Notes: a model not told the origin generated them from the letters alone. A DNA stretch of 59,928 nt from an uncultured Clostridia bacterium (GCA_947623555.1 CANQGW010000005.1:1-59928), one strand, 5' to 3'; shown: positions 1 through 49,789, counted from the stretch's first letter. Program-made: numbers and translations.

Positions 1-101
1 AAAGTGTTGAAGCAATTGACATTGAAGGATTAGAAAAAAAGATAAAAAAATTGCCTACATTTACTTGACACATACTTTAAAATTTAATGATTACAAATAT
101 G

Positions 102-130
102 TTGATAAAAATAAAAAAATATTATATAAT
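102..130 (+). promoter_or_regulatory. sigma-70-type promoter upstream of tRNA-Arg
   Basis: TTGATA (102-107), 17-nt spacer, TATAAT (125-130), about 19 nt upstream of the tRNA 5' end. Confidence 0.5.
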
Positions 131-148
131 TAATTATGCGTAAAATAT

Positions 149-225
149 GTGTCTGTAGCTCAGTTGGATAGAGCACTCGCCTCCTAAGCGAGGGGTCGCT
201 GGTTCAATTCCAGTCAGGCACACCA
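149..225 (+). tRNA. tRNA-Arg (anticodon CCU)
   Basis: Cloverleaf read by eye: acceptor GTGTCTG/CAGGCAC, D arm GCTCAGTTGGATAGAGC, anticodon stem CTCGC/GCGAG with 7-nt loop CTCCTAA, T loop GGTTCAATTCC, encoded CCA. Confidence 0.9.
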
Positions 226-271
226 TAAAAGGTACATTTACATTGTGCAAAAGTTATATATAAAAAGTCAA

Positions 272-495
272 AAAATTTTCTTTAAGGTTTATACTTAAAG
301 AAAATTTTTATATATTTATAGTAGCAATAAAAGCCTACAATGTCAAGTAAAAATGGCAAAGTTTTATATAAATTTTTTTAAAAATATTTTCAAAAATTCC
401 TCATTTTTTGAAGTTGAAAAAATGCTTGTAATTAAGCGGTGTAGCTTATTACAAACATTTTTGCATTTTCTTTAAGTATAAACTTTAAAGAAAAG
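272..495. promoter_or_regulatory. putative invertible promoter cassette A, promoter currently facing away from the downstream gene
   Basis: Left site 272-308 (15-nt arms AAAATTTTCTTTAAG/CTTAAAGAAAATTTT, spacer GTTTATA). Right site 466-495 has the same arms with reverse-complement spacer TATAAAC. Interior has a minus-strand promoter (TTGACA = 346-341, 17-nt spacer with TGn, TACTAT = 323-318) and a symmetric A-tract/stem/T-tract hairpin at 415-465. Whole cassette is repeated at 1941-2165. Confidence 0.55.
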
Positions 496-512
496 TTGCG
501 AAGGAGGAAAAA

Positions 513-1891
513 ATGTTGAAAAACAAAGGAATAACGCTAATCGCGTTAGTAGTAACCATAGTAGTATTATTAATATTAGCAGGTGTAAGTATAACTGCTG
601 TATTTGGAGAAAATGGAATAATAAATGGAGCCCAAAAGGCAAAAGATAAAACAGATGAATCTATAGAGCAAGAGCAAGAAGATGTAGGAAAACTAGTTAA
701 TCAATTAGAAGAGTTTGAAAGAGAAAGTTTGCCAGATACAGTAAAAGAAGCCATACAAAAAGGAACAATATTTACTGTAAATAAGCAAATAAAAGATGCA
801 ACTGGAAAGACAATGACAGTGCCAAAGGGGTTTAAAGTAAAAGAAGGAGAACTAATAGAAAATGGAGTAGTAATAGCAGACAGCGAAGGAAATGAATTTG
901 TGTGGATACCTTGTACAGTAGATGAATACAAAAAACATGACTATGAAGTAAAAGAGATAGATGATACTTCTAATAAAGCTGATGGAGAAAATAACGATAA
1001 AGGCTGGAACACACGTTCTTATAGAGCATATAATGACTGGAAAGATGATGAAATAGATGAAGCAGCAAATAAGAAAAGTGTACAAAATAATGGAGGCTTT
1101 TATATAGCAAGATATGAAGCAGGAGTACCAAAGGGTGCTAGCTTTTATGTAGATGCTTCAAGTGATAATAAACCATATCAAACAAGTAAAAATGATATAA
1201 GCGGAAATATAAAGCCAGTAAGTAAAAAAGGTGTGCAAGCATGGAATTTAATAAGTCAAATAAATGCTAAAGAAGTATCAGGAAGAATGTATAATGGAGA
1301 TAGTTACGGAGTAAGAAGTCAATTAGTAGATGGAACGGCATGGGATACGGTCGTAACATGGATGTCAAAAGATAGTAATTATAGTGGTATAGAAAAAGAT
1401 AGTACAAAATATGGAAACTATGCAGATAGTACTGGAAATAATCAAATAACAGCAGAGAATTGTTTATTTGCAGAACACTTATATAATTCTACAAGTAAAA
1501 CTTGGTACCTAGGAAAGAATTACCAATATGGATTATTCACATCTGGATATACAGCTTCGTACAAAGTTCCTGAAGGTGAAGGTGCAAACTATAATGGTTA
1601 TGATAGTGATGAAAAATGCACATATAATCATTATGTAGAAATGGCAACAGGAGTAAGTAGCAATACAAAATTAAAAAATATATGATATGGCAGGAAATAT
1701 TTATGAATGGACTACAGAATATGGATATCACGGTAACACATCCAGCAGTAAGAAGTACGCTGTTCTTCGTGGGGGGCGGTTTGAGCAACTTCGGTAATGA
1801 GAGTTCAGTTTCCATCCGCAATGGTATGCATTCGGACTCTGATGTAGGTCATCCTAGCCTCGGTTTCCGTGTTGTACTTTATGTAAAGTAA
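513..1891 (+). pseudogene. prepilin-leader / FGE-sulfatase-domain protein, paralog A, frame-disrupted
   Basis: ORFs 513-1685 and 1682-1891 are collinear with the intact paralog at 2183-3580. The frame breaks at an (AT)4->(AT)3 contraction near 1678-1685, creating in-frame TGA 1683-1685. It breaks again at in-frame CGG 1777-1779. The final frame ends in the shared GFRVVLYVK. Confidence 0.75.
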
Positions 1892-1940
1892 CAACACACT
1901 TTATTATAATAAAAAGAAATAAGTTAGCTGTAAAAAACAA

Positions 1941-2165
1941 AAAACTTTTCTTTAAGGTTTATACTTAAAGAAAAGTTTTATATGTTTATAGTAACAATAA
2001 AAGCCTACAATGTCAAGGGAAAACACCAAAGTTTTATATAATTTTTTTGAAAAATATTTTTAAAAATTCCTCATTTTTTAAACTTTAAAAAATGCTTGTA
2101 ATTAAGCGGTGGGGCTTATTACAAGCATTTTTGCATTTTCTTTAAGTATAAACCTTAAAGAAAAG
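1941..2165. promoter_or_regulatory. putative invertible promoter cassette B, same orientation state as cassette A
   Basis: Left site 1941-1979 (16-nt arms, spacer GTTTATA). Right site 2136-2165 (spacer TATAAAC). Minus-strand TTGACA (2016-2011), 17 nt, TACTAT (1993-1988). Hairpin AAAAATGCTTGTAAT...ATTACAAGCATTTTT at about 2085-2133. Confidence 0.55.
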
Positions 2166-2182
2166 TTGCGAAGGAGGAAAAA

Positions 2183-3580
2183 GTGTTGAAAAACAAAGGA
2201 ATAACGCTAATTGCATTAGTAGTAACCATAGTGGTTTTATTAATATTAGCAGGAGTAAGTATAACAGCAGTGTTTGGAGAAAATGGAATAATAAGCGGAG
2301 CACAAAAGGCAAAAGAAAAAACAGATGAATCTATAAAACAAGAGCAAGAGGATGTAGGAAAACTAGTTAATCAATTAGAAGAGTTTGAAAGAGAAAGTTT
2401 GCCAGATACAGTAAAAGAAGCAATACAAAAAGGAACAATATTTGCTGTAAATAAGCAAATAAAAGATGAAACTGGAAAGACAATGACCGTGCCAAAGGGG
2501 TTTAAAGTAAAAGAAGGCACAACTATAGATGAAGGAGTAGTAATAGCAGATAGCGAAGGAAATGAATTTGTGTGGGTGCCATGTGAAGATGGAGCTTACA
2601 AAAAACATGAATATGAAGTAAAACAGGTGAATGATACCTCTAGTACAGCTGATGGAGAAAATAAGGATAAAGGCTGGAACACAATTTATTATAGAAAATA
2701 TAGTGACTGGAAAGATGATGAAGTAGATGAAACAGAAAATAAGAAAAGTGTACAAAATAATGGAGGCTTTTATATAGCAAGATATGAAGCAGGAGTACCA
2801 AGTAATGCAGACTTTTATGTAGATGAAAGTACATCTGACAAAAGTTATAAAGATGCAAATTCAAAAGATACAACGCAAACAAAAAATGGTGAAAATTTAA
2901 AACCAGTAAGTAAAGCAGGAAATCAATGCTGGAACTTAATAAGTCAAATAAATGCTAAAGAAGTATCAGGAAAAATGTATAGTGGAGATAGTTATGGAGT
3001 AAGAAGTCAATTAGTAGATGGAACAGCGTGGGATACGGTCGTAACATGGATATCAAAAGATAGTAATTATAGTGGTATAGAAAAAAATAGTCTCACACAT
3101 GGAAACTATGCAGATAGTGCTGGAAAAAATCAAATAATAGAAGAGAATTGTTTATTTGCAGAACACTTATATAACTCTACAAGTAAAACTTGGTGCATAG
3201 GAAAGAATTATCAATATGGATTATTCACATCTGGATATACAGCTTCATACAAAGTTCCTGAAGGTGAAGGTGCAAACTATAATGGTTATGATAGTGATGA
3301 AAAATGCACATATGCTCATTATGTAGAAATGGCAACAGGAGTAAGTAATAATACAAAATTAAAAAATATATATGACATGGCAGGAAATATGTACGAGTGG
3401 ACTACAGAATATGGATATCACGGTAGCACGTCTAGCAGTACGAAGTACGCTGTTCGTCGTGGAGGCAGCTTCTGGAGCACTGGTACCAACTGTCCAGTCT
3501 CTTACCGCCTTGGTGACGTTACGGCGACGGTCGCGGGTGTTCCTAGCTTCGGTTTCCGTGTCGTACTTTATGTAAAGTAG
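2183..3580 (+). CDS. prepilin-type N-terminal leader protein with C-terminal FGE-sulfatase (SUMF1-like) domain, paralog B
   Basis: 465-aa ORF with GTG start 7 nt after GGAGGA. N-terminus MLKNKGITLIALVVTIVVLLILAG looks like a type IV pilin-like cleavage/methylation signal plus hydrophobic helix. C-terminus carries FGE-type motifs (YEWT, RRGGSF, GFRVV). Confidence 0.8.
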   Translation: MLKNKGITLIALVVTIVVLLILAGVSITAVFGENGIISGAQKAKEKTDESIKQEQEDVGKLVNQLEEFERESLPDTVKEAIQKGTIFAVNKQIKDETGKTMTVPKGFKVKEGTTIDEGVVIADSEGNEFVWVPCEDGAYKKHEYEVKQVNDTSSTADGENKDKGWNTIYYRKYSDWKDDEVDETENKKSVQNNGGFYIARYEAGVPSNADFYVDESTSDKSYKDANSKDTTQTKNGENLKPVSKAGNQCWNLISQINAKEVSGKMYSGDSYGVRSQLVDGTAWDTVVTWISKDSNYSGIEKNSLTHGNYADSAGKNQIIEENCLFAEHLYNSTSKTWCIGKNYQYGLFTSGYTASYKVPEGEGANYNGYDSDEKCTYAHYVEMATGVSNNTKLKNIYDMAGNMYEWTTEYGYHGSTSSSTKYAVRRGGSFWSTGTNCPVSYRLGDVTATVAGVPSFGFRVVLYVK

Positions 3581-3670
3581 AAATAGGTCACAATATGAAA
3601 GGAAAGACTGGTTATGTAAATAATTTTGTGTATTTCAGTATTTCATTATGTTAACAATTCTGATATTTTT

Positions 3671-3717
3671 AAACTGCCAATATAGCAATAAAATCATATA
3701 TTGGCAGTTTAATTTTA
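3671..3717 (+). terminator. rho-independent terminator
   Basis: 13-bp stem AAACTGCCAATAT/ATATTGGCAGTTT followed by a T-rich tract. Confidence 0.6.
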
Positions 3718-3786
3718 TCTGTTGTCTTCTTAATAAACAATGCATACACTTCTTACACAAAAGAAATTTAGTCAAAATGTTTATAA

Positions 3787-3815
3787 TTGACAAATAAAGC
3801 AATATAGGATAATAT
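3787..3815 (+). promoter_or_regulatory. sigma-70-type promoter for tadA
   Basis: TTGACA (3787-3792), 17-nt spacer, TAATAT (3810-3815). Confidence 0.45.
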
Positions 3816-3855
3816 AGTTATTGCTAAAGCTTAATAAAAAATAATGGGAGTACTA

Positions 3856-4317
3856 ATGAAAGAAAAAGAAAAATTTATGAAAGAAGCAATTAAACAAGCT
3901 CAAAAAGCGTATAACAAACAAGAAATTCCAGTAGGAGCTGTTATTGTTAAAAATAATAAAATTATTGCTAGAGCATATAATAAAAAAGAAGAAACTAAAA
4001 CTGCAACACATCATGCAGAAATATTAGCAATTCAAAAAGCTAGTAAAAAGTTAGGTTCATGGCGCTTAACTGGCTGTGAAATGTATGTTACACTAGAGCC
4101 ATGCAGTATGTGCGCGGGGGCATTAATTCAAGCAAGGATAAAAAAAGTATATATAGGAACAATGGACGAAAAAACAGGTAGTTGTGGTTCTGTTTTAAAT
4201 TTGCTTGAAGACTTTACATTTAATCATAAAGTAGAAATAGAAACAGGAATTATGCAAAAAGAATGTGAAAATATATTAAAAAATTTTTTTAAAGATTTAA
4301 GAAAAAGTAAAAAATAA
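3856..4317 (+). CDS. tadA: tRNA-specific adenosine deaminase
   Basis: CMP/dCMP deaminase zinc motifs HAE and PCSMCAGA. ATG 3856 follows GGGAG; the ORF track start at 3844 is also possible. Confidence 0.9.
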   Translation: MKEKEKFMKEAIKQAQKAYNKQEIPVGAVIVKNNKIIARAYNKKEETKTATHHAEILAIQKASKKLGSWRLTGCEMYVTLEPCSMCAGALIQARIKKVYIGTMDEKTGSCGSVLNLLEDFTFNHKVEIETGIMQKECENILKNFFKDLRKSKK

Positions 4318-4323
4318 TTATAA

Positions 4324-4417
4324 GGAGCGGTATCGAAGTGGTCATAACGAGGTTGACTCGAAATCAATTGGGCGCCTTAAAAGCGCCACGTGGGTTCGAA
4401 TCCCACCCGCTCCGCCA
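4324..4417 (+). tRNA. tRNA-Ser (anticodon CGA)
   Basis: Acceptor GGAGCGG/CCGCTCC, anticodon loop CTCGAAA, long variable arm GGGCGCC...GGCGCC, T loop GGTTCGAATCC, encoded CCA. Confidence 0.85.
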
Positions 4418-4441
4418 TAAATAAGAAGGAGGAAGTTTGTT

Positions 4442-5182
4442 TTGATTACAGAAGAAAAAAAACAAACAATAAAATTAATTGTTGCCGTTGCAATTTTATC
4501 ATTAATACTTATATTAGTTGCTATGTTAATGATAAAATATAACGTAGAAGGCGAAAAGAACATGCCATTTAAATTGTCTAAAATTGTAGTTATTAGTACA
4601 GCAGAAGGGTTAGAAAAGGAAAATAGTAAAACCAAATGGGATTTTGATATATATCAAAATAATGATGTATATTTTTACATAGATTCAAATACAGATGATG
4701 AGAATTTATTAATAAAAAGTGTAAAAATAGATAATATTAATGTAACAAAAGCGCCTCAAAAAGGCACAGTGAAAGCATATATGCCAAATAGCGAAGGAAA
4801 CAGGCTATATTCCATAGAAGACAAGTTTGTAGTAGATGAAAAGCTAGAGTATAAAGGCGCAAGCCAAAGTAGTTATACAAATTTAGAAATTGGTAGCAAA
4901 GGCGGAACAACATGGATCTCTTTTAACAACATGGGAATAGGAAATTATACTTCTGATGATGACACTCAAATAGTACATGATGGCACATGGCTTAAAAAAC
5001 TTAACATTTCAAAAGAAGAAGTAGAATTTTCAGTTTCATTTGATTACACAATAGAAACTACTAAAAATAAATATAAAGCAAATATTACATTAGACTTTCC
5101 AACTGGAGATATTGCAAGTAATGGAAGTGGATATTTAGAAAAAACAGATATGGAAGACATTGTATTTAAAAGAGAAAAGTAA
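4442..5182 (+). CDS. hypothetical N-terminally membrane-anchored protein
   Basis: 246-aa ORF, TTG start 9 nt after AGGAGG, single N-terminal hydrophobic helix, no recognisable motif. Confidence 0.6.
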   Translation: MITEEKKQTIKLIVAVAILSLILILVAMLMIKYNVEGEKNMPFKLSKIVVISTAEGLEKENSKTKWDFDIYQNNDVYFYIDSNTDDENLLIKSVKIDNINVTKAPQKGTVKAYMPNSEGNRLYSIEDKFVVDEKLEYKGASQSSYTNLEIGSKGGTTWISFNNMGIGNYTSDDDTQIVHDGTWLKKLNISKEEVEFSVSFDYTIETTKNKYKANITLDFPTGDIASNGSGYLEKTDMEDIVFKREK

Positions 5183-37682: not shown

Positions 37683-40600
37683 ATGAAAACAAAACAAAGA
37701 ATAATCGCATTATTTACCACTATTTTATTAGTATGCACAAACTTTGCTGGTATAGCAGGTAGTGTAATAGCAGTAGAAATGCCAGAACAAAACAACAAAA
37801 CAAATCACGCAAATGTAACATTTGATAGCTATTTAGAAGGAAACACACATAGCAAAACATATAAAGTAGCAGATCAAGCAAAAATGTATTTAAAGGTAGC
37901 TGTAAAAAATGCAGGATACTTAAAAAATGGTACAGTTAACATATCAAATACTGCTAACTATGAAATAGACACAAGTAACCTAAAAAATGACATGATACAA
38001 AGTGCTACCGAAGGACAAGTAAAATTAAAACAAATAGGTAGTGGAAGTGAAATAGAAATAGCACTACCAATAAAAATAAAAGAGTCAAATCAAGTAGATA
38101 AAGACTTTATTGAAAAAATTTCTGCGGTAACATTTAATGGAACATATATAGATGCAAACGGAAAAGAAGTAGCAATAACAAAAACAATAAATAACCAAAT
38201 TATTTGGGAAGAGCAAACAAGTTTAGAGTTAAGCAGTAAAGTAACAAAATACATCCCATTTAATGAAGGAGAAAATTATGGTGTTTTAGTACAAACTACA
38301 GTAAGTAGTAAAATAAAAGACCATAATTTGCCAGTTTCAAAAACAGAAATACAAATGCAAGTGCCAGAGATGGAAGGAACATTACCAGAGGAAGTAACAG
38401 TAGTAGCAAACCAAACAACAAATACAAACAATGATCAAACAGGAACAGAATTTAGTAAAGAAAATTATGAATACAATAAAGAAGCAAAAACAGTAAGCAT
38501 AAAAGTAGAAAACAAAGAAAATGCAGAAGGAAAAATAGCAAACAACAAAGAAGGAACAGATGAATATTTAGTAAACTTCATATATAAAGGAAAAGAGCTA
38601 TATGATAGCATGAAGGAAAAAACATTTGAAGCAGAATCAAACATACAAGCAAAAGTTATATTAAAAAATACAAATGAAACAGCAGTAGAAGGAACTAATA
38701 AAGTTACATATAAAGAAAAAGAAGAAAAAGGACTTTTAACAGATTTAGAAGTTTCTGCTACAAACAGTGTAAATAAAGGAAATATATATGCAAACTATGA
38801 AAAAGTAGCTCAAAATAAACAAGCAAATTTAGAAACAGAATATGAAACAAAATATGCAGTAAAAGTAAACAATAAAGAATTAAACAATAAAATAGAGTTT
38901 TTAACAGGAACAGAAAGCTATAAAAATGCAAAAGAAGAAGAAACCCAAGTAGGAACAGGAAGCTATATAAAAGAAATAGTAGTACCACAAAATATATTTA
39001 CAAAAATATTAGGGCAAGAAGGAAGCATTACAATAAATAGAGCAGATGGAAGTACAATAGCAACAATAGATGAAAAATCAGTAACAAAAGAAAACAAAGA
39101 AGAAAACAATAAAGAAACTGAAGAAGAAAATAAAGAAGAAGAAACACAAACAAATCCAGACTTAACAATAGAAAACGGAAATTATGTATTAAACATAGCA
39201 GAAAGAAGAGTGCAAGAAGTACAAATAAAAACAAGTAGTCCAGTAGAAGAAGGAACATTAAGCATAACATTAAAAAGAGCATTAAGTCATAATAAAAGCA
39301 TTACATTAAATGAAATGAAAACATTTAAAACATTAAATGTAACAGTAGAAAATGCAATGAACAACAATGTAAAACAAAAAGTAGAACAAGCTATAAACTT
39401 AAAAGAAGTAACAACAAAAGCCCAGTTAAGTATAGAAGCAGGAAAAGAGAACCTATCAACAGCAGTAGTAAATGAAAATGTAGAAATAAGAGCAACATTA
39501 GATATATCTAGCACAGAAAATGCCCTATACAAAAACCCAACATTAAAAATAAAAATGCCAAGTCAAATAAGTAAAGTAGACATCAATAAGAGTAGCTTAT
39601 TAATGGACGGCGGATTAAAAATAAAAGAAATAAAACAAGAAAAAGAAAATGAAAGTATAGTAATAAAAGTAGAATTAACAGGAAGTCAAACCGACTATGT
39701 AGAAAACGCAGACTACAAGGGAGCTATACTACTATTAGATACAAACCTAACAGTAGATACATTAGCAACAAGTGGAAGTAAAGAAATAAAAATGACATAC
39801 ACAAATGAAAATAGTGTATCAGAAAATAAAGAAGGAACAGCAGAAGCAAAAGTAAATATAGTAGCTCCAGTAGGAATAGTATCAGCAAACGGAATATCAA
39901 ACTATTCAAAAAATGAAAAAAATATAATGACAATTTCAGCAAACGAAGTAGAAGCAAACTTACAAACATATAGTGAAAAACAAATAGCAACAGTAAGTGG
40001 AAAAATAATAAACAACTATGGAAATAAAATAACAAATGTACAAGTACTAGGAAGAATACCAAGTAAAGAAAACACGAACACACAAACAGGAGAAAGTTTA
40101 GGTTCTACATTTGATAGTAAATTAAATAGTCCAGTAAAACTAACAGGAATAGACAGTAAAAACTATAAAGTATATTATTCAGATAAAGCAAATGCAACAA
40201 GAGAGTTAAATAATAGTGAAAACGGCTGGAAAGAGCAAGCAACAACAGGATCAAAATCATATTTAATAGTAACAAACAATTATGAAATGGAGCAAGGAGA
40301 AAAGATAGATTTTGAATACAACATAGAAATACCAGCAAACTTAAGCTATAATAACCAAGCATCAGAAATGTATCAAGTATATTATGAGAACGTATCAAAA
40401 GTAGGAACAATAGCAGAAACGAAAACATCACCAATAATAACAACCTCAACAGGAGAAGGACCAGAGCTAAAAGGAGAAATAAGCCAAACAATAGATACAG
40501 TTAGAGAAGGCCAAATAGTAAAAATGAAAGTAAAAGTAAGTAACACTGGTGGAATGGATGCTACTGATGTTAAAGTTACTGTTAAAAAGCCTACAGGTGC

Positions 40601-42737
40601 TAGCCTAGTAGAATATAAGTATCAAGAATTTTCTACTTCTATAGAAGAAAGCGAAACAATAGATATCGGTACATTATTTAAAGGGGAAACCATAGAAAAG
40701 TATTTTTACATCGAAGTAGAACCAGCAGTGGAATCATTAGCAGAATCAATTAACATTAATGCAAGTATTACAGCAAAAGAGCTAGAAAATAAAATACCTG
40801 TAGAATATACATTACAAAATGTGCAAGAAGGAAAATTACGTATTAGAACTATGGTGTTAACTAAAAACGGTAGTGAAGAGGGAGTATATTTATTAGGTCA
40901 AGAATTACAATTCTATATAGTGGTTAAAAACCTAGAATGGGATAGTACAGCGCAAAACGTAAAAGTAAATATACCAATGCCAGATATGTTTACTTATATA
41001 AGCGGAAAAGTAAAAGAAGATGTTATAGATGAAGGAACTTCAGATGGTATTACATATAATCAAAATAACCATAGTATTTCTGTAGATTTAGGAGCATTAA
41101 AAAATACAAAATATATTTATATAAATACTGGTGTAGCAAAACCAGGAAATGTATTTATTACAACAACTGCTACTGCAGAAGGTGTAGATACACATTATTC
41201 TAATGAATTTGAAGTATTAGTAGAACAGCCTCAAATTGAGCTTTCTAATTTAATTACTAATTCTAAATATATAAAAGAAGGCGAAATAGTTACACATGAA
41301 ATAGAAGTACGAAATGTAGGTAGAACAGATGTCCAAAACGTAAAAGTTGGTATTAACCTTCCAGAAGAATTTAATCTTGAAGACATATCTTATACTACAA
41401 ACAATGGTGAAATAATTACTTATACTAAAGGAGAGTTACAAGATGAAAATAAACTTGAAATAGAATTAGGAAATATAAATGTGGGAATAACAAGTTATAT
41501 TACTATTAGGTCTGAAGTTGGAACTATTTCAGAAGGTAATGAAAAAGAGGTAACAACTTATGTAACTGTTAATGTTACTGGTATTGATGAGCAAACAAGT
41601 AACAAAGTAACAAATGTTATAGAGTACAGTCAAGAAGTTCATGATAGAACAGAAGGAAATGAAAACTTGGGAGGAAGTGAAGGTTCTGGAGGAAGCACTA
41701 CTTCAAGAAATATAATATCAGGAACAGCATGGCTAGATGAAAACAAAAATGGTGCAAGAGAAGAGGAAGAACAATTACTTTCAAATGTACAAGTTGCATT
41801 ATTAAATAGTGCAGATAATTCTATTATAAAGGATAGTGACACAGGCGAAGACAAAGTAGTGCTAACTGATGAAAATGGTAAATATGCAATTACAAATGTG
41901 CAAAATGGAAGTTACATAGTAGTATTTGTATACGATTCATCAAACTACGGAGTAACAACTTACCAAGCCAAAGATATAGAAACAGGAGTAAATTCAGATG
42001 CAATAGAAATGAATATAACATTAAATGGAGAAAAAAGGTTAGCAGGAATAACAAACGTAATAAATGTAAATGGAAATAATGTAAGAGATATAGACATAGG
42101 CCTATATAAATTACAAAGATTTGATTTAAGGTTAGAAAAATATGTAAGCAAAATAACCCTAACAACACCAACAATAGGAACGAAGTTATATACAAACAAA
42201 GATAGTAAAATAGAGAAAGTAGAAATATTAAGTCAAAATGTAGGAAAAGCAAGTATGGTAATAGAGTACAAGCTAGTAGTAACCAATGAAGGAGCAGTAG
42301 CAGGATATGCTAAAAAGCTAGTAGACTACTTGCCAAGTTCAGTAAGCTTTAGTACAGACTTAAATAAAGACTGGTACTTATCAGAAAATGGAAATGTATA
42401 TAATGCAAGTTTAGCAAACACATTAATACAACCAGGGGAAAGTAAAGAAGTAACATTAGTATTAAGTAAAAAGATAACAGAAGAAGACATGGGAAATGTA
42501 CTAAACAATAATGCAGAGATATATGAAGCAGATAATGAGCAAGGCTTAAACGATATAGATTCGGTAGCAGGAAACAACGAATCAGAAGAAGATGATATAT
42601 CAAAAGCAGACATAGTAATATCAACAGTAACAGGAACAATAATAAAATACACAGGGTTAGGAATAGGAATAATAGCAATATTAGTAATAGGAATATATGA
42701 AATAAAAAAACATGTAATAAAAATAGAAAGGAGGTAA
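37683..42737 (+). CDS. giant cell-surface protein with DUF11/CARDB-like and SdrD B-like domains
   Basis: 1684 aa, signal peptide. Repeated beta-sandwich signatures (VKVSNTGGMDATDVKVTV, EVRNVGRTDVQNVKVGI). SdrD-B-like segment ISGTAWLDENKNG...TDENGKY. C-terminal hydrophobic helix plus a basic tail. Confidence 0.85.
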   Translation: MKTKQRIIALFTTILLVCTNFAGIAGSVIAVEMPEQNNKTNHANVTFDSYLEGNTHSKTYKVADQAKMYLKVAVKNAGYLKNGTVNISNTANYEIDTSNLKNDMIQSATEGQVKLKQIGSGSEIEIALPIKIKESNQVDKDFIEKISAVTFNGTYIDANGKEVAITKTINNQIIWEEQTSLELSSKVTKYIPFNEGENYGVLVQTTVSSKIKDHNLPVSKTEIQMQVPEMEGTLPEEVTVVANQTTNTNNDQTGTEFSKENYEYNKEAKTVSIKVENKENAEGKIANNKEGTDEYLVNFIYKGKELYDSMKEKTFEAESNIQAKVILKNTNETAVEGTNKVTYKEKEEKGLLTDLEVSATNSVNKGNIYANYEKVAQNKQANLETEYETKYAVKVNNKELNNKIEFLTGTESYKNAKEEETQVGTGSYIKEIVVPQNIFTKILGQEGSITINRADGSTIATIDEKSVTKENKEENNKETEEENKEEETQTNPDLTIENGNYVLNIAERRVQEVQIKTSSPVEEGTLSITLKRALSHNKSITLNEMKTFKTLNVTVENAMNNNVKQKVEQAINLKEVTTKAQLSIEAGKENLSTAVVNENVEIRATLDISSTENALYKNPTLKIKMPSQISKVDINKSSLLMDGGLKIKEIKQEKENESIVIKVELTGSQTDYVENADYKGAILLLDTNLTVDTLATSGSKEIKMTYTNENSVSENKEGTAEAKVNIVAPVGIVSANGISNYSKNEKNIMTISANEVEANLQTYSEKQIATVSGKIINNYGNKITNVQVLGRIPSKENTNTQTGESLGSTFDSKLNSPVKLTGIDSKNYKVYYSDKANATRELNNSENGWKEQATTGSKSYLIVTNNYEMEQGEKIDFEYNIEIPANLSYNNQASEMYQVYYENVSKVGTIAETKTSPIITTSTGEGPELKGEISQTIDTVREGQIVKMKVKVSNTGGMDATDVKVTVKKPTGASLVEYKYQEFSTSIEESETIDIGTLFKGETIEKYFYIEVEPAVESLAESININASITAKELENKIPVEYTLQNVQEGKLRIRTMVLTKNGSEEGVYLLGQELQFYIVVKNLEWDSTAQNVKVNIPMPDMFTYISGKVKEDVIDEGTSDGITYNQNNHSISVDLGALKNTKYIYINTGVAKPGNVFITTTATAEGVDTHYSNEFEVLVEQPQIELSNLITNSKYIKEGEIVTHEIEVRNVGRTDVQNVKVGINLPEEFNLEDISYTTNNGEIITYTKGELQDENKLEIELGNINVGITSYITIRSEVGTISEGNEKEVTTYVTVNVTGIDEQTSNKVTNVIEYSQEVHDRTEGNENLGGSEGSGGSTTSRNIISGTAWLDENKNGAREEEEQLLSNVQVALLNSADNSIIKDSDTGEDKVVLTDENGKYAITNVQNGSYIVVFVYDSSNYGVTTYQAKDIETGVNSDAIEMNITLNGEKRLAGITNVINVNGNNVRDIDIGLYKLQRFDLRLEKYVSKITLTTPTIGTKLYTNKDSKIEKVEILSQNVGKASMVIEYKLVVTNEGAVAGYAKKLVDYLPSSVSFSTDLNKDWYLSENGNVYNASLANTLIQPGESKEVTLVLSKKITEEDMGNVLNNNAEIYEADNEQGLNDIDSVAGNNESEEDDISKADIVISTVTGTIIKYTGLGIGIIAILVIGIYEIKKHVIKIERR

Positions 42738-42742
42738 CACAG

Positions 42743-45700
42743 ATGAAAAAGAAAATAATAATATGGGTAGCAATAGTAATGTTACTAATAGCAGGAATAA
42801 TAGGTATAATAGCATATAAATCAAATAACTTATTAGCAGCAGAACCAGCAACTATTAGTAAAAGTACTACTGTTACTAAAAGTGGGAGTGCATCAACTGC
42901 AGTAAGTACCAGATCATATGGTACACTTCTTGATACAAGTTTTTTTGAGATAACAGGTGTAGGATGGGATGGAATCCCTACATACACGGATGAGGAAACG
43001 GGGATTACCTACACGCTTCACTGCTATCAACATGGAATAAGATTACGTTGGAATAACTATAATACGATGGAATATTCGCATGATGAGATAGTACAAATGA
43101 GAGATAAAATCTTCGAGTTTACTTTACCTGATCAAAGACTTACGTATGATATTTGGAATAGGAATTGGCCCGTAGAAAACGGTGGCTACTGGTGTACGCC
43201 TTATTATGAGAAATCTGGTTCAGGCAGTTTAAGCGATTGTGAAGCATATATATATTCATCTGGTTCAAGTTATGCCGACAAGCAAAATGCTATTTGGAAT
43301 TTGCAAGAGCATTCGACTAGCACTCTTGTTACAGAGGGAAATAAGTATAGTGCTTATAAAAGCAAAGTAAGTAATAATGGTATGAACCCAAATGATGCTA
43401 CTGATGTAAAATCTGTGCAGGTTACTTTAAACAATACAAACACAACAACTTCAGAAGAAACTATAGGACCATTCAAAATTACATACAATGCTGGAAATAA
43501 TATGTTTTCAGGAATAACTAACATAGTGGCAATTGGGTATAACAAAAATGACCAAGTAGTAAAAAATAATATTAGAATTAAAGCTTTTTATTTACAAAGT
43601 GCGCCTAATGTTTATTCTAATAGAATACAACCAAGTTATTTCTCGCCAGATTCATATTTTGTAGATAAAAGTGGGGAGATAAGAAAGTACCCTTCATCTG
43701 GTCAAAACTTTAAAATTGTAATTGATAACCCAAATGTAGGTAAAAGTGAAACTGATCCAAACTGGATAACTACATATGGAATTAAAGTAACATTTAAATA
43801 TATGTTGGCAGATGGTTCTTACGTTTCTTATTCAGGACATCAAGAACGCCTTACACACACCAGATTGGAACAAAGATACAATCCACGTGGTGAAACTACA
43901 TATATAAAATGGCAACTTGTGAGTGAAATATATAATTGCCAAAATCAAGAATCAGTAACAGCAAAAAGAAGTCAATACATGCAAGAGATAACAATTAAAT
44001 TACCACAGCAAGAAACTACTACCGGTAACTTAACAGTACAAAAATTTGTAATAGGAGAGAATGTTGATACAAACAAGGCATTTAATTTTACAGTAACATT
44101 AAGTAATAAAAACATAACTGGAACATACGACGATATGACATTTAAAAATGGTGTAGCAACATTTACTTTAAAACATAAGCAAAAGAAAGTAGCAACTGGC
44201 TTACCAGCAGGAATAACATACACAGTAGTAGAGTCAGAAGCAAATAAAAATGGATATACAACAACATATTCTGGAACAACAGGAACCATAAAAGCAAAAA
44301 CAACTAGTGTGGCGGTAATTACAAATAAAAAGAACATCAAACATTATGGAACTTTATCAGTAAAAAAGGTTGTAACAGGAGAAGCAGGTGATAAAAATAA
44401 AAACTTTAATTTTACAGTAACATTAAGTGATAAAACCATAACTGGAACATACGGAGAAATGAAGTTTACAAATGGTGTAGCAACATTTACATTAAAACAT
44501 GGACAGTCAAAAACAGCAGAAAAACTACCAGAAAAAATAACATACACAGTAGTAGAGAAAGAAGCAAATAAAGATGGATATACAACAACATATTCTGGAA
44601 CAACAGGAACAATATCTGAACAAAAAACTAGTGTAGCAACAGTTACTAACTATAAAGACGTTGACAAAGGTAACTTAACAGTAAAAAAGGTTGTAACAGG
44701 AGAAGCAGGAGAAAAAAATAAAGAATTTAATTTTACAGTAACATTAAGTAATAAAAACATAAATGGAACATACGGAGAAATGACGTTTAAAAATGGTGTA
44801 GCAACATTTGCCTTAAAACATGGACAGTCAAAAACAGCAGAAAAACTACCAGTAGGAATAACATACACAGTAAAAGAAAAAGAGGCAAATAAGGATGGAT
44901 ATAAAACAACATATTCTGGAGAAACAGGAACCATATCAAAACAAAAGACAAGTGTAGCAACAGTTACTAACGATAACGGAGGCGGTGACAAAGGTAACCT
45001 AACAGTACAAAAAGTTGTAACTGGAGAAGCAGGTGATAAAAATAAAAACTTTAATTTTACAGTAACATTAAGTGATAATAAAATAAATGGAAAATATGGA
45101 GACATGACCTTTGTAAATGGTGTAGCAAAATTTCCATTAAAACATGGACAGTCAAAAACAGCAACTGAATTACCAGTAGGAATAACATACAAAGTAGTAG
45201 AAGCAGAGGCAAATAAAGATGGATATAAAACAACATATACTGGAACAACAGGAACAATATCAAAACAAAAAACAAGTGTAGCGGCATTTACTAACGATAA
45301 AACTACTGGCAATGGTAACCTAACAGTACAAAAGGTTGTAATAGGGGATAAAATTGACACAAACAAGGCATTTAATTTTACAGTAACATTAAGTGATAAA
45401 AACATAAATGGAAAGTATGGAGAAATGACCTTTGAAAATGGTGTAGCAAAATTTAGCTTAAAACATGGACAGTCAAAAACAGCAGAAAGACTACCAGCAG
45501 GAATAACATACACAGTAGTAGAAGCAGAAGCAAATACAAATGGATATAAAACAACATATACTGGAGAAACAGGAACCATAAAAGCAAAAACAACTAGTGT
45601 TGCGGTAGTTACAAATAAAAAAGACGACATCAAACATTATGGAGATTTATCAGTACAAAAGGTTGTAACAGGAGAATTAGGAGAAAAAAATAAAAGCTTT

Positions 45701-48700
45701 AACTTTACAGTAACATTAAGTGATAAAAGCATAAATGGAAAGTATGGGGATATGACCTTTAAAAATGGTGTAGCAACATTTACCTTAAAACATAAAGAAT
45801 CGAAAACAGCAGAAAAGCTACCAGAAGGATTAGAGTATACAGTAATAGAAAAAGAGGCAGGACAAGAAGGTTATGAAACAAGTTATACAGGAACAACAGG
45901 AACCATAACGAAAAGCTCTGCATCTGTAGCTACATTTACTAACCATAAAGAAATTAAAACTTATATGGAATTAGGTGGATATGTATGGTTGGACTCTGAA
46001 CAAGGCAAAACCGATCAAAATGATGGTATAAAAGGTAGCGGAGAGAAGGTATTTAAAAATATTAAAGTATCATTATATGATGCTTCAACAAATAAACTAG
46101 CAACATTAGTGCCAGATAAAGTACAGCCATCAGATGATAATATATTCCATAAAGTTAACCCAACATTAACAGATGAAAATGGTTACTATGAATTTTCAGG
46201 ATTAAACCCATTAAAAAGGTATTATGTAGTATTTGAATATAATGGACAAAAATATTTACCTACAGATTATTTAACATATAATGGAACAAAATATTCAAGT
46301 ATACAAGATATGGTAAATAGAGGTTTATATTGGAAGGATGGAGATAGTACAGCACAGTGGAAAGGTACTTCAAAAGCTGGAGAAAATGGGTCTGACAGAA
46401 ATAACTTAAATAATAAATTTTCAGAAATAGGATCATCACCAAAAGGCTATCAAGTTACAAGCTTTGTATCAAGTTCTACAGCATTAAAAAATGCTTTAGC
46501 AAAAGATGGTGGCAAATACTATAACACAGCATATTCAGAAAATGAGCTTATGGGCTTTGTAATGGGAGAAGATGGTGACTATACACAAGGAACAAGGCTA
46601 CTAGATGGATTTAAAGCAATAGATAATGATGGAAATATAGTATCATCAGACACGATTCAAGAAGGCGAAATTAGTAAAGCAATAAGAAATTATGTTAAAA
46701 CTAATAAAAAATATCCAGATAATACAGCTATGGAACAAATATATGCAAAGATAGCAGGAAACAATGTAGAAACTTGGAGAAAGTTACAATATATATATGA
46801 TACAACAATAAAATCATACACAGGAAAGCCAGCCACAACAGTAGCAAAGGAGACCTACCCAGTATATACTAATAAGTTTACAATAAGTAATCAAAAAGAA
46901 ACAGTAACAAATGGAATTATATGTACTAATTGTAATGGAACCGGAAAAGTTAATTGCCCAGGTAACATTACAAAATCTCCATCGTACTATTTGGATAGTT
47001 ATTATTGTCCTCGATGTCAAAAGACATGGAACGGTCCAGGCAATAAGCAGAAGGCTGCAGCTAGGACTTGGTACTGCACGTTATGTCATTTTACAAATGT
47101 GTGTAAAACCTGCCCTAAAGGACATGCTTGGTATAGCCAAGGATCTGATAATGAGCACACTATCCAAAAACCAAAGATTGATTGTCCAACATGTAAAGGA
47201 ACAGGGTATACAGGCTATGCAACTGAAACATATGAACCAATATACCCAGGACAATACTTTATCAACCTAGGTTTATATGAAAGACCAAAAGCAGATGTAT
47301 CAGTTAATAAAGATATATACCGTGTAGCAACAAGAATAAATGGAAAAACAGAGGTATATAACTACGGAAGAAGCAAAGATGATGTTTGGGATCTTCAAGT
47401 AAGAATGAGAGATTATGATAATTACTATGGAGATTACTACAATAGAGATTTATATCAATCAGATATTGACTATAATGCGGCAAGAACGAACAAATCTGGC
47501 AAAAATTTAGAAGTATATGTAACATATAAAATTTCAGTATCAAATAATTCAATAGGAAGAAATGGTGAAGGACTTCTAGTAGAAATACCAGAGATAGTAG
47601 ATTACTATGATAAAGACTTTACATATATGCCAAACTTATCATGGGCAGTAGGAACACCAACTAATGCATCGTACTACAATACAATGAGTAACTTAAAACT
47701 AAATATTTCAGGTGCAAAAGCTGTAAATACTTATAATACTTCTAAATATGGTGCTATTACACATTCAGATTTAACACAAACATACAATGCTGTATACATT
47801 CGTGGATTAGCAGGACAAAAGTTAAAAACAGGAGAAAAAGTATATATATTCTTAACATTTAAAGTAAATACAGATAGTAATGGAAAAGTTATATTAGATA
47901 ATGATGTTAATAGCTTAAAGCAAAATTATGTTGAGATTAATGGATACAAAGCATATTATGCTTCAGGAACTAAATTACCAAATGGTGTAACAATAAATAA
48001 TACTACTACACCAGCAGGATTAGTAGACCAAGACTCAACACCAGGTAACCTAGCAAAACAAGATTTAACAGGAAACAGATATGAGAAGAACTTCGAAGAT
48101 GATACAGATAGAGCAAAAGGCTTAAGAATACAAGTAACAACAGAAGGCGAAAGAGAGATAAATGGTGTCGTATGGGAAGATCAAAGAACAAAAACAATAA
48201 GTAATGCAATAATAGGTGATGGTATAAGACAAAGTGGAGAAATTGGAATACAAGGTGTAAGTGTAGAACTAGTAGAAAAAATGGCTAATGGAAATGAATA
48301 TGTATGGCAAACAGTAACAACAAGAGAAGGCGGATCGTATGCACTTACCGACTTTATACCAGGAGACTATATAGTAAGGTTTAAGTACGGAGATAAGGTA
48401 GATACAGTACAGACATCAACAAATGGAGGAAGCAATAGTGTATCATATAACGGACAAGACTTTAAATCAACAGTATATAATAAAAACTTAAATACAAATG
48501 CTACTTTATCTAACAAACAAGTAAATGGTCAAGAAGCATATAATATTAAAGACGCAGATAATTTAACAAAGAGCGGAATAAATATGTCAGATGCAAAAGA
48601 TTTATGGAAGAGAAGAGAAGAGGTAAATAACTATAGTACAACAAATGTTACAAACCATAAAGCAGAAGTACTAGCATCACCATATAATAATGCTACAAAT

Positions 48701-49789
48701 AACAGCTTGATACAAGAATTAATAACAAATACAAACATGGTAGCAGAAACACCATTAATAGTAGCAGAAGTAGAATATAACCAAACAGAAACAAATGGAA
48801 ATAACCAAGGAAGATACGTTTTCGAATCTTTAGACTTTGGCTTAACAGAAAGACCAAAAGCACAATTAGAATTAAGCAAAAAAGTAACAAATGTAAAAGT
48901 AGTATTAGCAAATGGAAATACCCTATTTGATAGTGGAAAGTCAGTAGACAATTTAGCATGGCTAGAAGGAAAAGCATATAATCTAAATTCAAAGAAGAGT
49001 AACAATAAATATGACGAATACTATAATGAAAGTAAAACAGATAAAACATATAACCGTTACTCATATAGAACAAAAATAGATGATCTAGTAAATGGATTAT
49101 ATGACTCATATCCAAAAGGATCAAACGGATTAATACAAGCAACAATGGATAACGAGTTAATGCATGGAGCAACTATAACAATAAGTTATGGAATAACCAT
49201 AACAAACGTAGGGGAAACCGACTACACAGGACAAGACTTCTATTACAAGGGCGAAGGAGCTTCAGAAAGTAACAAAGTAACTACATCAGCTGATGCTGTA
49301 TTAGATTATGTAGCAAATAACCTACAATATAGGCAAGCAGACAACGAAGGCTGGGAAACAATAAAAGCTGACAAGTTAATAAGTGATAAATTAGTTAATG
49401 ACAGTTTAAAAGACGAACTAAAAACTGTTAACACAATTGTAAAGACAGAAGCATTAAAGAAAAACTTAAAACCAGGAGAAAGTTCACAAAGTACATTAAA
49501 TTTATCACAAACTATGACAGTAGAAAACACAACTGATGACAGAACATACGAAAATATAGCCGAAATAGTACAAACAAGTAATACAGTAGGAAGAAGAATG
49601 GCATATTCAATAGTAGGAAATCAAGACCCAACAAAAGCACCAGCAGAAGTAGATAGTGCAACAGGAGAGCAAGTAATAGTATTACCACCATTTGGAGCTA
49701 TGCAATATGTATACTATGGAATAGGAGTACTAGTAGTAGGAATGTTAATTGCCGGAATTATTTTCATAAAGAAAAAGGTAATTAAATAG
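42743..49789 (+). CDS. giant cell-surface adhesin with CnaB-type repeats, SdrD B-like domains and a Cys-rich insert
   Basis: 2348 aa, starts 5 nt after the previous stop. N-terminal anchor/signal. Possible thioester-domain motifs. Six ~108-aa tandem repeats. Two SdrD-B-like segments (YVWLDSEQ...TDENGYY; VVWEDQR...). C-terminal VLPPFG, a hydrophobic helix, then KKKVIK. Confidence 0.85.
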   Translation: MKKKIIIWVAIVMLLIAGIIGIIAYKSNNLLAAEPATISKSTTVTKSGSASTAVSTRSYGTLLDTSFFEITGVGWDGIPTYTDEETGITYTLHCYQHGIRLRWNNYNTMEYSHDEIVQMRDKIFEFTLPDQRLTYDIWNRNWPVENGGYWCTPYYEKSGSGSLSDCEAYIYSSGSSYADKQNAIWNLQEHSTSTLVTEGNKYSAYKSKVSNNGMNPNDATDVKSVQVTLNNTNTTTSEETIGPFKITYNAGNNMFSGITNIVAIGYNKNDQVVKNNIRIKAFYLQSAPNVYSNRIQPSYFSPDSYFVDKSGEIRKYPSSGQNFKIVIDNPNVGKSETDPNWITTYGIKVTFKYMLADGSYVSYSGHQERLTHTRLEQRYNPRGETTYIKWQLVSEIYNCQNQESVTAKRSQYMQEITIKLPQQETTTGNLTVQKFVIGENVDTNKAFNFTVTLSNKNITGTYDDMTFKNGVATFTLKHKQKKVATGLPAGITYTVVESEANKNGYTTTYSGTTGTIKAKTTSVAVITNKKNIKHYGTLSVKKVVTGEAGDKNKNFNFTVTLSDKTITGTYGEMKFTNGVATFTLKHGQSKTAEKLPEKITYTVVEKEANKDGYTTTYSGTTGTISEQKTSVATVTNYKDVDKGNLTVKKVVTGEAGEKNKEFNFTVTLSNKNINGTYGEMTFKNGVATFALKHGQSKTAEKLPVGITYTVKEKEANKDGYKTTYSGETGTISKQKTSVATVTNDNGGGDKGNLTVQKVVTGEAGDKNKNFNFTVTLSDNKINGKYGDMTFVNGVAKFPLKHGQSKTATELPVGITYKVVEAEANKDGYKTTYTGTTGTISKQKTSVAAFTNDKTTGNGNLTVQKVVIGDKIDTNKAFNFTVTLSDKNINGKYGEMTFENGVAKFSLKHGQSKTAERLPAGITYTVVEAEANTNGYKTTYTGETGTIKAKTTSVAVVTNKKDDIKHYGDLSVQKVVTGELGEKNKSFNFTVTLSDKSINGKYGDMTFKNGVATFTLKHKESKTAEKLPEGLEYTVIEKEAGQEGYETSYTGTTGTITKSSASVATFTNHKEIKTYMELGGYVWLDSEQGKTDQNDGIKGSGEKVFKNIKVSLYDASTNKLATLVPDKVQPSDDNIFHKVNPTLTDENGYYEFSGLNPLKRYYVVFEYNGQKYLPTDYLTYNGTKYSSIQDMVNRGLYWKDGDSTAQWKGTSKAGENGSDRNNLNNKFSEIGSSPKGYQVTSFVSSSTALKNALAKDGGKYYNTAYSENELMGFVMGEDGDYTQGTRLLDGFKAIDNDGNIVSSDTIQEGEISKAIRNYVKTNKKYPDNTAMEQIYAKIAGNNVETWRKLQYIYDTTIKSYTGKPATTVAKETYPVYTNKFTISNQKETVTNGIICTNCNGTGKVNCPGNITKSPSYYLDSYYCPRCQKTWNGPGNKQKAAARTWYCTLCHFTNVCKTCPKGHAWYSQGSDNEHTIQKPKIDCPTCKGTGYTGYATETYEPIYPGQYFINLGLYERPKADVSVNKDIYRVATRINGKTEVYNYGRSKDDVWDLQVRMRDYDNYYGDYYNRDLYQSDIDYNAARTNKSGKNLEVYVTYKISVSNNSIGRNGEGLLVEIPEIVDYYDKDFTYMPNLSWAVGTPTNASYYNTMSNLKLNISGAKAVNTYNTSKYGAITHSDLTQTYNAVYIRGLAGQKLKTGEKVYIFLTFKVNTDSNGKVILDNDVNSLKQNYVEINGYKAYYASGTKLPNGVTINNTTTPAGLVDQDSTPGNLAKQDLTGNRYEKNFEDDTDRAKGLRIQVTTEGEREINGVVWEDQRTKTISNAIIGDGIRQSGEIGIQGVSVELVEKMANGNEYVWQTVTTREGGSYALTDFIPGDYIVRFKYGDKVDTVQTSTNGGSNSVSYNGQDFKSTVYNKNLNTNATLSNKQVNGQEAYNIKDADNLTKSGINMSDAKDLWKRREEVNNYSTTNVTNHKAEVLASPYNNATNNSLIQELITNTNMVAETPLIVAEVEYNQTETNGNNQGRYVFESLDFGLTERPKAQLELSKKVTNVKVVLANGNTLFDSGKSVDNLAWLEGKAYNLNSKKSNNKYDEYYNESKTDKTYNRYSYRTKIDDLVNGLYDSYPKGSNGLIQATMDNELMHGATITISYGITITNVGETDYTGQDFYYKGEGASESNKVTTSADAVLDYVANNLQYRQADNEGWETIKADKLISDKLVNDSLKDELKTVNTIVKTEALKKNLKPGESSQSTLNLSQTMTVENTTDDRTYENIAEIVQTSNTVGRRMAYSIVGNQDPTKAPAEVDSATGEQVIVLPPFGAMQYVYYGIGVLVVGMLIAGIIFIKKKVIK
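44024..45964 (+). repeat. six tandem ~324-nt coding repeats (CnaB/prealbumin-fold type domains)
   Basis: Each unit reads G(N/T/D)L(T/S)V(Q/K)K(V/F)V.G....KN..FNFTVTLS...I.G.YG.M.F.NGVA.F.LKH...K.A..LP.GI.Y.V.E.EA...GY.T.Y.G.TGTI.....SVA..TN. Confidence 0.9.

Follow-up and report, generated by a model that had tools for sequence, protein, structure and literature searches.

The locus described here raises the question of why a promoter enclosed between two inverted, lox-like sites should point away from the gene that follows it, and whether the enclosed segment can be turned round so that the same promoter drives that gene. The window, that is, the whole stretch of DNA analysed (59.9 kb), is a chromosomal contig of ~28% GC from a spore-forming member of Clostridia, with housekeeping and sporulation genes such as dnaX, recR, ddl, prfA, pcrA, mreBCD, spoIIE and sleB. 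Close to its start lies what is very probably a flip-flop promoter, caught in its OFF position at sequencing, which switches a surface-protein gene on and off in this uncultured gut Clostridia bacterium.

Sites, promoters and genes of the window

The features of the two switches, their genes and a lone copy are as follows (positions are those of the window):

149-225: tRNA-Arg gene, upstream of the sites of switch A
271-309 (core 276-304), no strand: gene-distal site of switch A, TTTTCTTTAAG + spacer GTTTATA (287-293) + CTTAAAGAAAA
318-346, minus strand: extended -10 promoter of sigma-70 type, switch A; TTGACA (346-341), 17 nt with TG, TACTAT (323-318)
410-470 (core stem ~418-462), no strand: interior hairpin of switch A, with A tract, stem and T tract; putative two-way terminator
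466-494, no strand: gene-proximal site of switch A, TTTTCTTTAAG + spacer TATAAAC (477-483) + TTTAAAGAAAA
503-1891, plus strand: gene A, ribosome-binding site GGAGG at 503-507, ATG at 513; paralogue of gene B
1941-1979 (core 1946-1974), no strand: gene-distal site of switch B, spacer GTTTATA as in switch A
1988-2016, minus strand: promoter of switch B; TTGACA, 17 nt with TG, TACTAT; directed away from gene B (OFF)
2080-2140, no strand: interior hairpin of switch B, homologue of 410-470
2136-2164, no strand: gene-proximal site of switch B, TTTTCTTTAAG TATAAAC CTTAAAGAAAA, matching the pattern without mismatch
2183-3580, plus strand: gene B, 465 aa, intact and full length; presumed target of the switch
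58591-58716 (site 58591-58619), plus strand: lone site with spacer TATAAAC, then a ribosome-binding site, ~25 codons of the 5' end of the gene and a stop

The core sites of switch A are 161 bp apart, and each consists of arms of 11-16 bp around a 7-bp centre. In the left site the arms form a perfect 16-bp palindrome (271-286 against 294-309), and the right site has a single arm mismatch, T484. An earlier note on this DNA had described inverted arms around an asymmetric 7-bp spacer, GTTTATA on the left and TATAAAC on the right; the sites were found where it had placed them, the right one measuring 29 bp (466-494) and not the 30 bp given there. Apart from such details, the observation of that note is confirmed. 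The spacer of one site is the exact reverse complement of that of the other, which means that the sites are in inverted orientation and that recombination between them would flip the interior of ~160 bp.

The arm-N7-arm pattern, with up to 3 mismatches allowed, occurs 5 times in the window, against 0.02 occurrences expected. The unit formed by the switch and its gene is tandemly duplicated 1670 bp downstream, with ~91% identity and unchanged spacers. The interiors of copies A and B have diverged by ~9%, yet all four sites are intact and their spacers are perfectly matched. The site at 58591-58619 has no partner site, and the segment to which it belongs (58591-58716) is, as read from its sequence, a decayed copy of the switch and gene unit. 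Because switch A, switch B and the lone site have the same spacer, recombination among them could delete the 1.67-kb unit, invert gene A or invert 58 kb. Related to this, the lone site could recombine over a long range with the sites at 276 and 1946, relative to which it is inverted, and such an event would invert ~58 kb. Relative to the sites at 466 and 2136 its orientation is direct, and recombination with these would delete ~56 kb of essential genes.

The near-consensus minus-strand promoter facing away from the gene (OFF), also claimed previously, is located at 346-318, where it reaches a consensus score of 10/12, and copy B has the same promoter at 2016-1988. Assuming that transcription begins, as usual, ~7 nt past the -10 element, the start in switch A is predicted near 311. 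The remainder of the interior contains the hairpin at 410-470, with an A run at one side and a T run at the other, whose folding energy is -18.5 kcal/mol on the plus strand (z -3.6) and -21.6 kcal/mol on the minus strand (z -6.7). The hairpin reported earlier is therefore real and strong, although it is A/U-rich and was not flagged by a simple terminator scan. It is found in the window and in two other lineages and is missing from many related modules, which rules it out as a universal part of the module. The role of terminator and insulator that had been assigned to it is plausible here and in some lineages, where it is strong, but does not extend to the whole family.

The two downstream genes are in different condition. 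The frame of gene A is broken near 1680: relative to gene B (window 1676-1780), 2 nt are lost in AAAAAATATATAT and 1 nt is then gained in a G run. Gene A is either a pseudogene with slippage at simple repeats or the product of an assembly error, and with this frameshift switch A may control a dead gene. The intact gene B begins with a hydrophobic helix resembling a prepilin signal. Nevertheless, the match behind the previous description of a pilin-like gene is below threshold: the N_methyl model gives 16.1 bits against a cut-off of 21.2, the residues after KG are ITLIA, so that Ala takes the place of the usual Glu at +5, and only 1 of 48 homologues matches N_methyl at E <0.001.

The C-terminal part of gene B gives a clearer picture. 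The score of gene B with the FGE-sulfatase family (PF03781) is 21.4 bits, below the cut-off of 23.3, and 40 of the 48 homologues match this family, the best with an E value of 6e-10. The AlphaFold model (pLDDT 87.5) has as its best PDB matches TaqVP, TvpA and Mtd, which are variable proteins of diversity-generating retroelements (DGR), and then FGE, EgtB and PorK, all with low TM-scores (0.34/0.41 for the best). According to this model, the C-terminal part is a lectin-like fold of the FGE-sulfatase type, and the protein appears to resemble the DGR variable proteins. The targets of other switches in related genomes are paralogues that share either the lectin-like domain or the N-terminus.

Within gene B, ~120 nt before the conserved 3' end (3443-3562) have a GC content of 0.55-0.62 and an adenine content of 0.08-0.18, the rest of the gene having ~0.3 and 0.45, respectively. 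The counterpart of this stretch in gene A (1760-1850) is the sole strongly diverged stretch between both genes. The segment 3443-3562 looks like the adenine-depleted variable region of a diversity-generating retroelement; neither a template repeat nor a reverse transcriptase was found in the window or in the related loci examined.

Some other observations concern the window as a whole. Several genes of housekeeping type, murF-like, TraG/VirD4-like and spoIIE-like, at 11727-13122, 16784-18788 and 50055-52551, each appear to be split into two ORFs, which suggests assembly indel errors or true gene decay. Two very large ORFs with repeated domains (1684 and 2348 aa) occupy 37683-49789; they have a signal-like N-terminus and a membrane-anchor-like C-terminus and are probably giant surface proteins. 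The RNA-family scan of positions 1-4500 gave two tRNAs and nothing else.

A family of modules with matched spacers

In sites of the lox/FRT type the arms are recognized by the enzyme, and an overlap of 6-8 bp has to be homologous for strand exchange to take place. If the window's sites are of this type, related modules should keep their arms and vary their centres in pairs, and this is the pattern observed. An arm-pattern scan of one genome per species gave 23 loci, nearly all from MAGs of uncultured gut Clostridia (human, chicken, rabbit, roe deer and horse), and a metagenome site scan gave 30 further loci; ~40 homologous modules are present in related gut MAGs and metagenomes. The arm core TCTTTAAG/CTTAAAGA is near-invariant in 28 oriented modules. 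In the 58 related loci, the 7-bp centres are exactly reverse-complementary in 37 of the 41 adjacent site pairs (100-450 bp apart), the chance of such a match being ~6e-5 (4^-7) per pair, and 22 different centre sequences are represented among adjacent pairs. Positions 1, 2 and 7 of the centre are semi-conserved (T, A and A) and the middle is free. Conserved arms around a centre that varies and is nevertheless matched between partners point to the overlap region of a tyrosine recombinase; the core-site architecture that had been proposed from a single locus is thus supported by spacer covariation in the family, and the sites can be considered, with high confidence, recombination sites of an invertible promoter.

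Two of the four imperfect pairs are artefacts of the loose pattern, and the other two, in L010 and L046, are genuine and have 2 mismatches each. At L010:6437-6637 the two central bases of the spacer are themselves inverted. At L046:2176-2399 the disagreement is limited to centre positions 1 and 7, hinting that the actual overlap may comprise just the inner 5-6 bases.

Related genomes with several switches have a separate centre for each of them; for instance, the centres of one Hadza MAG are TTATATA, CTATATA, TTGTATA, TTGCATA and GTACATG. More distant relatives have other arms (TCATTAAG, TCGTTAAG) and follow the same spacer rule. The modules are always at the same position relative to the start of the regulated gene, and the genes come from few related families. 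Literature searches turned up no account of these sites or of such switches acting on genes for these proteins. On sequence grounds, the switch is a member of a large undescribed family in which each switch has a private 7-base crossover sequence. The window breaks this rule, as switches A and B and the lone site have one spacer, probably in consequence of recent duplication; these two tandem switches and the lone site constitute a natural test case for unwanted cross-recombination.

Further evidence comes from modules with homologous flanks, in which the interiors are inverted end to end with breakpoints at or inside the sites. There are three such cases, namely a pair of tandem paralogues sharing a contig (L021, 4981 versus 6448), two loci of one MAG (L001 versus L004:2834) and two rabbit-gut MAGs (L003 versus L014). 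In the second case a locus-specific inner arm, ACGTC, travels with the promoter end of the interior, which places the exchange between the inner and the outer arms and is indirect evidence for the cleavage expected of such sites, which would be staggered at the overlap edges, made by a catalytic tyrosine and resolved through a Holliday junction. A promoter TTGAyw-17-TAwAAT is conserved in 25 modules, and its -10 element ends 19-23 nt from one inner arm core; ~20 of these modules are OFF (promoter away from the gene) and 5 are ON (toward the gene). The inversion of interiors between homologous flanks thus means that some loci have the promoter facing the gene and others have it facing away. The layout predicted for the ON state (hairpin, promoter, site, ribosome-binding site and gene) is also found at one locus represented by ten human-gut contigs:

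L013, L028, L031, L034, L035, L038, L039, L041, L053, L056: single site, spacer TATGTAC

With its single site and no distal one, this locus is apparently locked ON.

No locus was found in two orientations, and loci present in 2-4 assemblies always agreed in orientation, as is expected of consensus assemblies. There is no contig on record encoding exactly gene B or its three close NCBI-only homologues, and the metagenome scan for the proximal site plus the gene flank gave no match. Contig ends are frequent near switches (e.g. L001, L005, L052 and L054); they were discounted as evidence because paralogous repeats could also break assemblies.

The family also bears on what happens to transcription at the sites. 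Folded as RNA, the sites give -12 to -16 kcal/mol. The terminator scan flagged the left site of copy B (1941-1979) on both strands and left that of copy A unflagged; as minus-strand RNA, the copy A site forms a 16-bp stem followed by the U run UUUUUUGACUUUUU. The distal site read outwards forms a 16-bp hairpin of -13 to -15.6 kcal/mol followed by UUUUUUGACUUUUU or UUUUUUGUUUUUU. Family-wide, the outward 8 bases past the distal site contain on average 4.85 T, against 1.1 T in the gene-ward 8 bases past the proximal site, and the 3' flank of proximal site A is purine-rich without a T run. Consequently, the distal site with its T run looks like a terminator of the outward OFF-state transcript, its terminator activity being uncertain because the hairpins are A/U-rich with just 2-3 G-C pairs. 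The proximal palindrome is shorter in ON modules (8.6 versus 12.1 bp), which fits read-through when the switch is ON.

The recombinase, the proposed mechanism and other readings

No recombinase was found among the ORFs of at least 110 aa in the window, and no serine recombinase either. Nevertheless, in several related lineages a tyrosine recombinase is encoded directly beside the modules, in agreement with the type of enzyme proposed in the earlier note. The switch-adjacent protein has 313 aa, the domains Phage_int_SAM_3 and Phage_integrase (PF00589), and the usual catalytic motifs (RxGE, HxLRH and the Y in RYVH). Its positions are:

L058: recombinase, ends 17 bp before the distal site
L060/L061/L062: recombinase, ends 57 bp before the distal site
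L012 (1649-2555): recombinase, ends ~190 bp before the distal site
L024 (341-1282): recombinase, ~1.4 kb upstream of the switch
L048 (12120-13165): recombinase, at 91 bp from a single site whose arms are identical

In the protein collection, the family to which these proteins belong comprises more than 7000 members, for which the sole source name seen is 'site-specific integrase'. The L024 recombinase remains below the cut-offs (in brackets) of the NCBIfam models for tyrosine-type DNA invertases, with 38.4 bits for NF007370 (221) and 21.7 for NF007371 (222), and of the Xer models, with 109 bits for XerA (220), 75 for XerC (335), 70 for XerD (330) and 41 for XerS (267); the recombinase is also below the cut-offs of integron-type models. 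The closest solved structure is Tn1549 Int (6emy), with an E value of 4e-18.

Two of these loci have peculiarities of their own. The L012 recombinase, from a chicken-gut MAG, is frameshifted at about codon 231, giving a product of 244 aa (P0129). This shortened form is recorded in 6 contigs with 49 member sequences, and because of this recurrence the frameshift may be real. L048 is a metagenome contig of higher GC, in which the lone site TTTTCTTTAAG TAACTTC CTTAAAGAAAA lies without a partner beside the recombinase; it could be the attachment site of an integrative element, hinting at the origin of the system.

Taken together, it is likely that 271-494 and its duplicate 1941-2164 are an invertible promoter cassette responsible for phase variation of the downstream surface-protein gene, flipping at this locus being deduced from the relatives; that the window copy still flips in its organism can be stated with moderate confidence. 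In the proposed mechanism, each end would be a complete tyrosine-recombinase core site, with strand exchange within the 7-bp asymmetric overlap. In the OFF state the promoter next to the distal site would fire outwards, and its RNA would start just before the site, meet the 16-bp hairpin and U run of the latter and stop after ~50 nt. With this arrangement the product of the OFF promoter should be limited to a short terminated RNA. Between upstream transcription, from tRNA-Arg or gene A, and the gene there would also be the interior hairpin and the distal site. After inversion (ON) the promoter would lie ~13 bp from the gene-proximal site with the interior hairpin upstream of it as an insulator, and, since the proximal site is followed by purines and not by U, transcription should read into the ribosome-binding site and the gene.

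The enzyme would be a tyrosine recombinase of ~313 aa, presumably encoded elsewhere in the genome and acting in trans. In related genomes one recombinase would serve several switches, and the private overlap of each switch should prevent recombination between different switches, which would give the spacers an insulating role. A wider picture can be offered tentatively, with chances somewhat short of even: one recombinase reads the shared arms, private overlaps insulate the switches genome-wide, the distal site doubles as the OFF terminator, and the C-terminal patch of the lectin-fold targets may be hypermutated by a DGR. If this were true, many switches could flip independently without scrambling the chromosome, and the lectin-fold gene would carry two layers of variation.

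Among the other readings, the one with the best claim is that of a fossil: a switch that was once invertible and is now frozen OFF through loss or inactivation of its recombinase, with genes that are silent or decaying. The frameshift of gene A, the remnant copy at 58591-58716 and the absence of a recombinase from the window are in keeping with it, as are the frameshifted adjacent recombinase of one related species, whose shortened form recurs in 6 contigs, and the single-site locked-ON locus of another species. On the other hand, the four sites of A and B have stayed intact with perfectly matched spacers despite the ~9% divergence of their interiors, gene B is intact and full length, and the frameshifts may be assembly errors, to judge from the other split genes of the window. 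A frozen switch is, on this evidence, unlikely.

The remaining readings do without inversion or without a tyrosine recombinase. The palindromes could be operators for a dimeric regulator, simple intrinsic terminators bracketing a divergent promoter, or both; every site is indeed palindromic and its arms are conserved, a T run follows the left site, whose counterpart in copy B (1941-1979) was flagged as terminator-like, and the sites fold as RNA with -12 to -16 kcal/mol. However, this would leave without explanation the covariation of paired centres that vary between loci, the interiors inverted between homologous flanks and the tyrosine recombinase beside the sites in several lineages, and it is very improbable. 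Even less credit can be given to a miniature mobile element with terminal inverted repeats and an outward promoter, copied by transposition and not inverted: the module is present many times per genome, its copies resembling one another in interior layout and all ending in inverted terminal repeats, but target-site duplications are not visible at the flanks, the copies are at a constant position relative to the start of genes from few related families, and the repeat centre changes in both ends together, which transposition does not predict. Inversion by a serine invertase of the Hin/Gin or Mpi type is just as hard to sustain. Such enzymes also use palindromic sites and control promoter switches, and L061 has large serine recombinase genes ~4 kb from its switch; nevertheless, the overlap at which serine invertases exchange strands is the central 2 bp of sites of even length, whereas here an odd 7-bp centre covaries over its whole length, the gene recurrently found beside the sites is a tyrosine recombinase, and the window contains no serine recombinase. 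These three readings were rejected on spacer covariation and recombinase adjacency, and promoter inversion by a tyrosine recombinase is the reading retained in the following comparison.

Comparison with known switching systems

Promoter inversion is a known means by which gut bacteria vary their surface and, to our knowledge, detailed studies of it are confined to Bacteroides, E. coli with its relatives and C. difficile. The present modules extend it to abundant uncultured low-GC gut Clostridia of humans, chickens, rabbits and ruminants, and point to a recombinase family with thousands of members. Private spacers would be a natural answer to the problem of one recombinase serving many sites without deletions or large inversions. 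Besides, a compact recombinase with dozens of naturally orthogonal sites has potential for the design of genetic circuits.

In the fimS switch of E. coli, a short invertible segment carries the promoter of a surface structure, and the tyrosine recombinases FimB and FimE are encoded beside the switch. These recombinases have ~200 aa, and the fim switch, whose 9-bp repeats are flanked by dissimilar half-sites, depends on IHF and Lrp. The modules described here are like fimS and related UPEC switches in having an invertible promoter of a surface gene and, in the relatives of the window, a recombinase beside the switch. They differ in the enzyme, since the L024 recombinase gives just 38 bits with the fim-type invertase model, whose cut-off is 221, and we know of no multi-locus family with private spacers to which the fim switch belongs.

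The sites themselves are closer in design to those of Cre/loxP and FLP/FRT, whose arms measure 13 bp and whose spacer measures 8 bp, and which function in the maintenance of plasmids or phages. In lox and FRT sites the spacer sets the orientation and must match that of the partner, and sites with different spacers (lox511, lox2272) do not cross-react. Inverted arms around an asymmetric spacer are common to both, and the spacer covariation found here is the natural counterpart of heterospecific lox sites. In contrast, the present arms are of ~8-11 bp, the spacer is of 7 bp, the sites belong to chromosomal gene switches, and kinship with Cre is at superfamily level only.

Xer recombinases act on dif sites, which have two arms and a centre of 6-8 bp. 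Together with the Tn1549/Tn916-type integrases they are the closest relatives of the recombinase in sequence, yet it stays below the family cut-offs of 220-335 bits. Unlike the Tn1549/Tn916-type integrases, it lacks an arm-binding domain of the transposon-integrase type, and its function here would be the inversion of promoter cassettes and not integration or dimer resolution as in Tn1549 and Xer.

The promoter cassettes of the Mpi regulon in Bacteroides fragilis are mostly OFF at any time. In that organism one master recombinase, Mpi, flips many scattered promoter cassettes of surface structures; it is a serine recombinase, and its sites have a common repeat (PMC5903667). The modules of gut Clostridia differ in both respects, with private crossover sequences instead of one common repeat and a recombinase of the tyrosine type.

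The RecV switches of C. difficile (cwpV, flgB, cmrRST and others) depend on a trans-acting tyrosine recombinase that serves several short invertible elements, and they share with the present modules the occurrence in Clostridia, the control of surface or motility genes and, if the modules flip as proposed, the ON/OFF heterogeneity, a resemblance that is functional only (PMC5903667). The inverted repeats of C. difficile vary in sequence from site to site, and other recombinases are suspected (PMC5903667). The family to which the window belongs has, in contrast, near-invariant palindromic arms in which only the 7-bp centre differs, and it would work by a plain promoter flip. The departures from the fimS, RecV and Mpi switches are therefore the complete lox-like ends, the shared arms with a private overlap, and a distal site that seems to double as a terminator.
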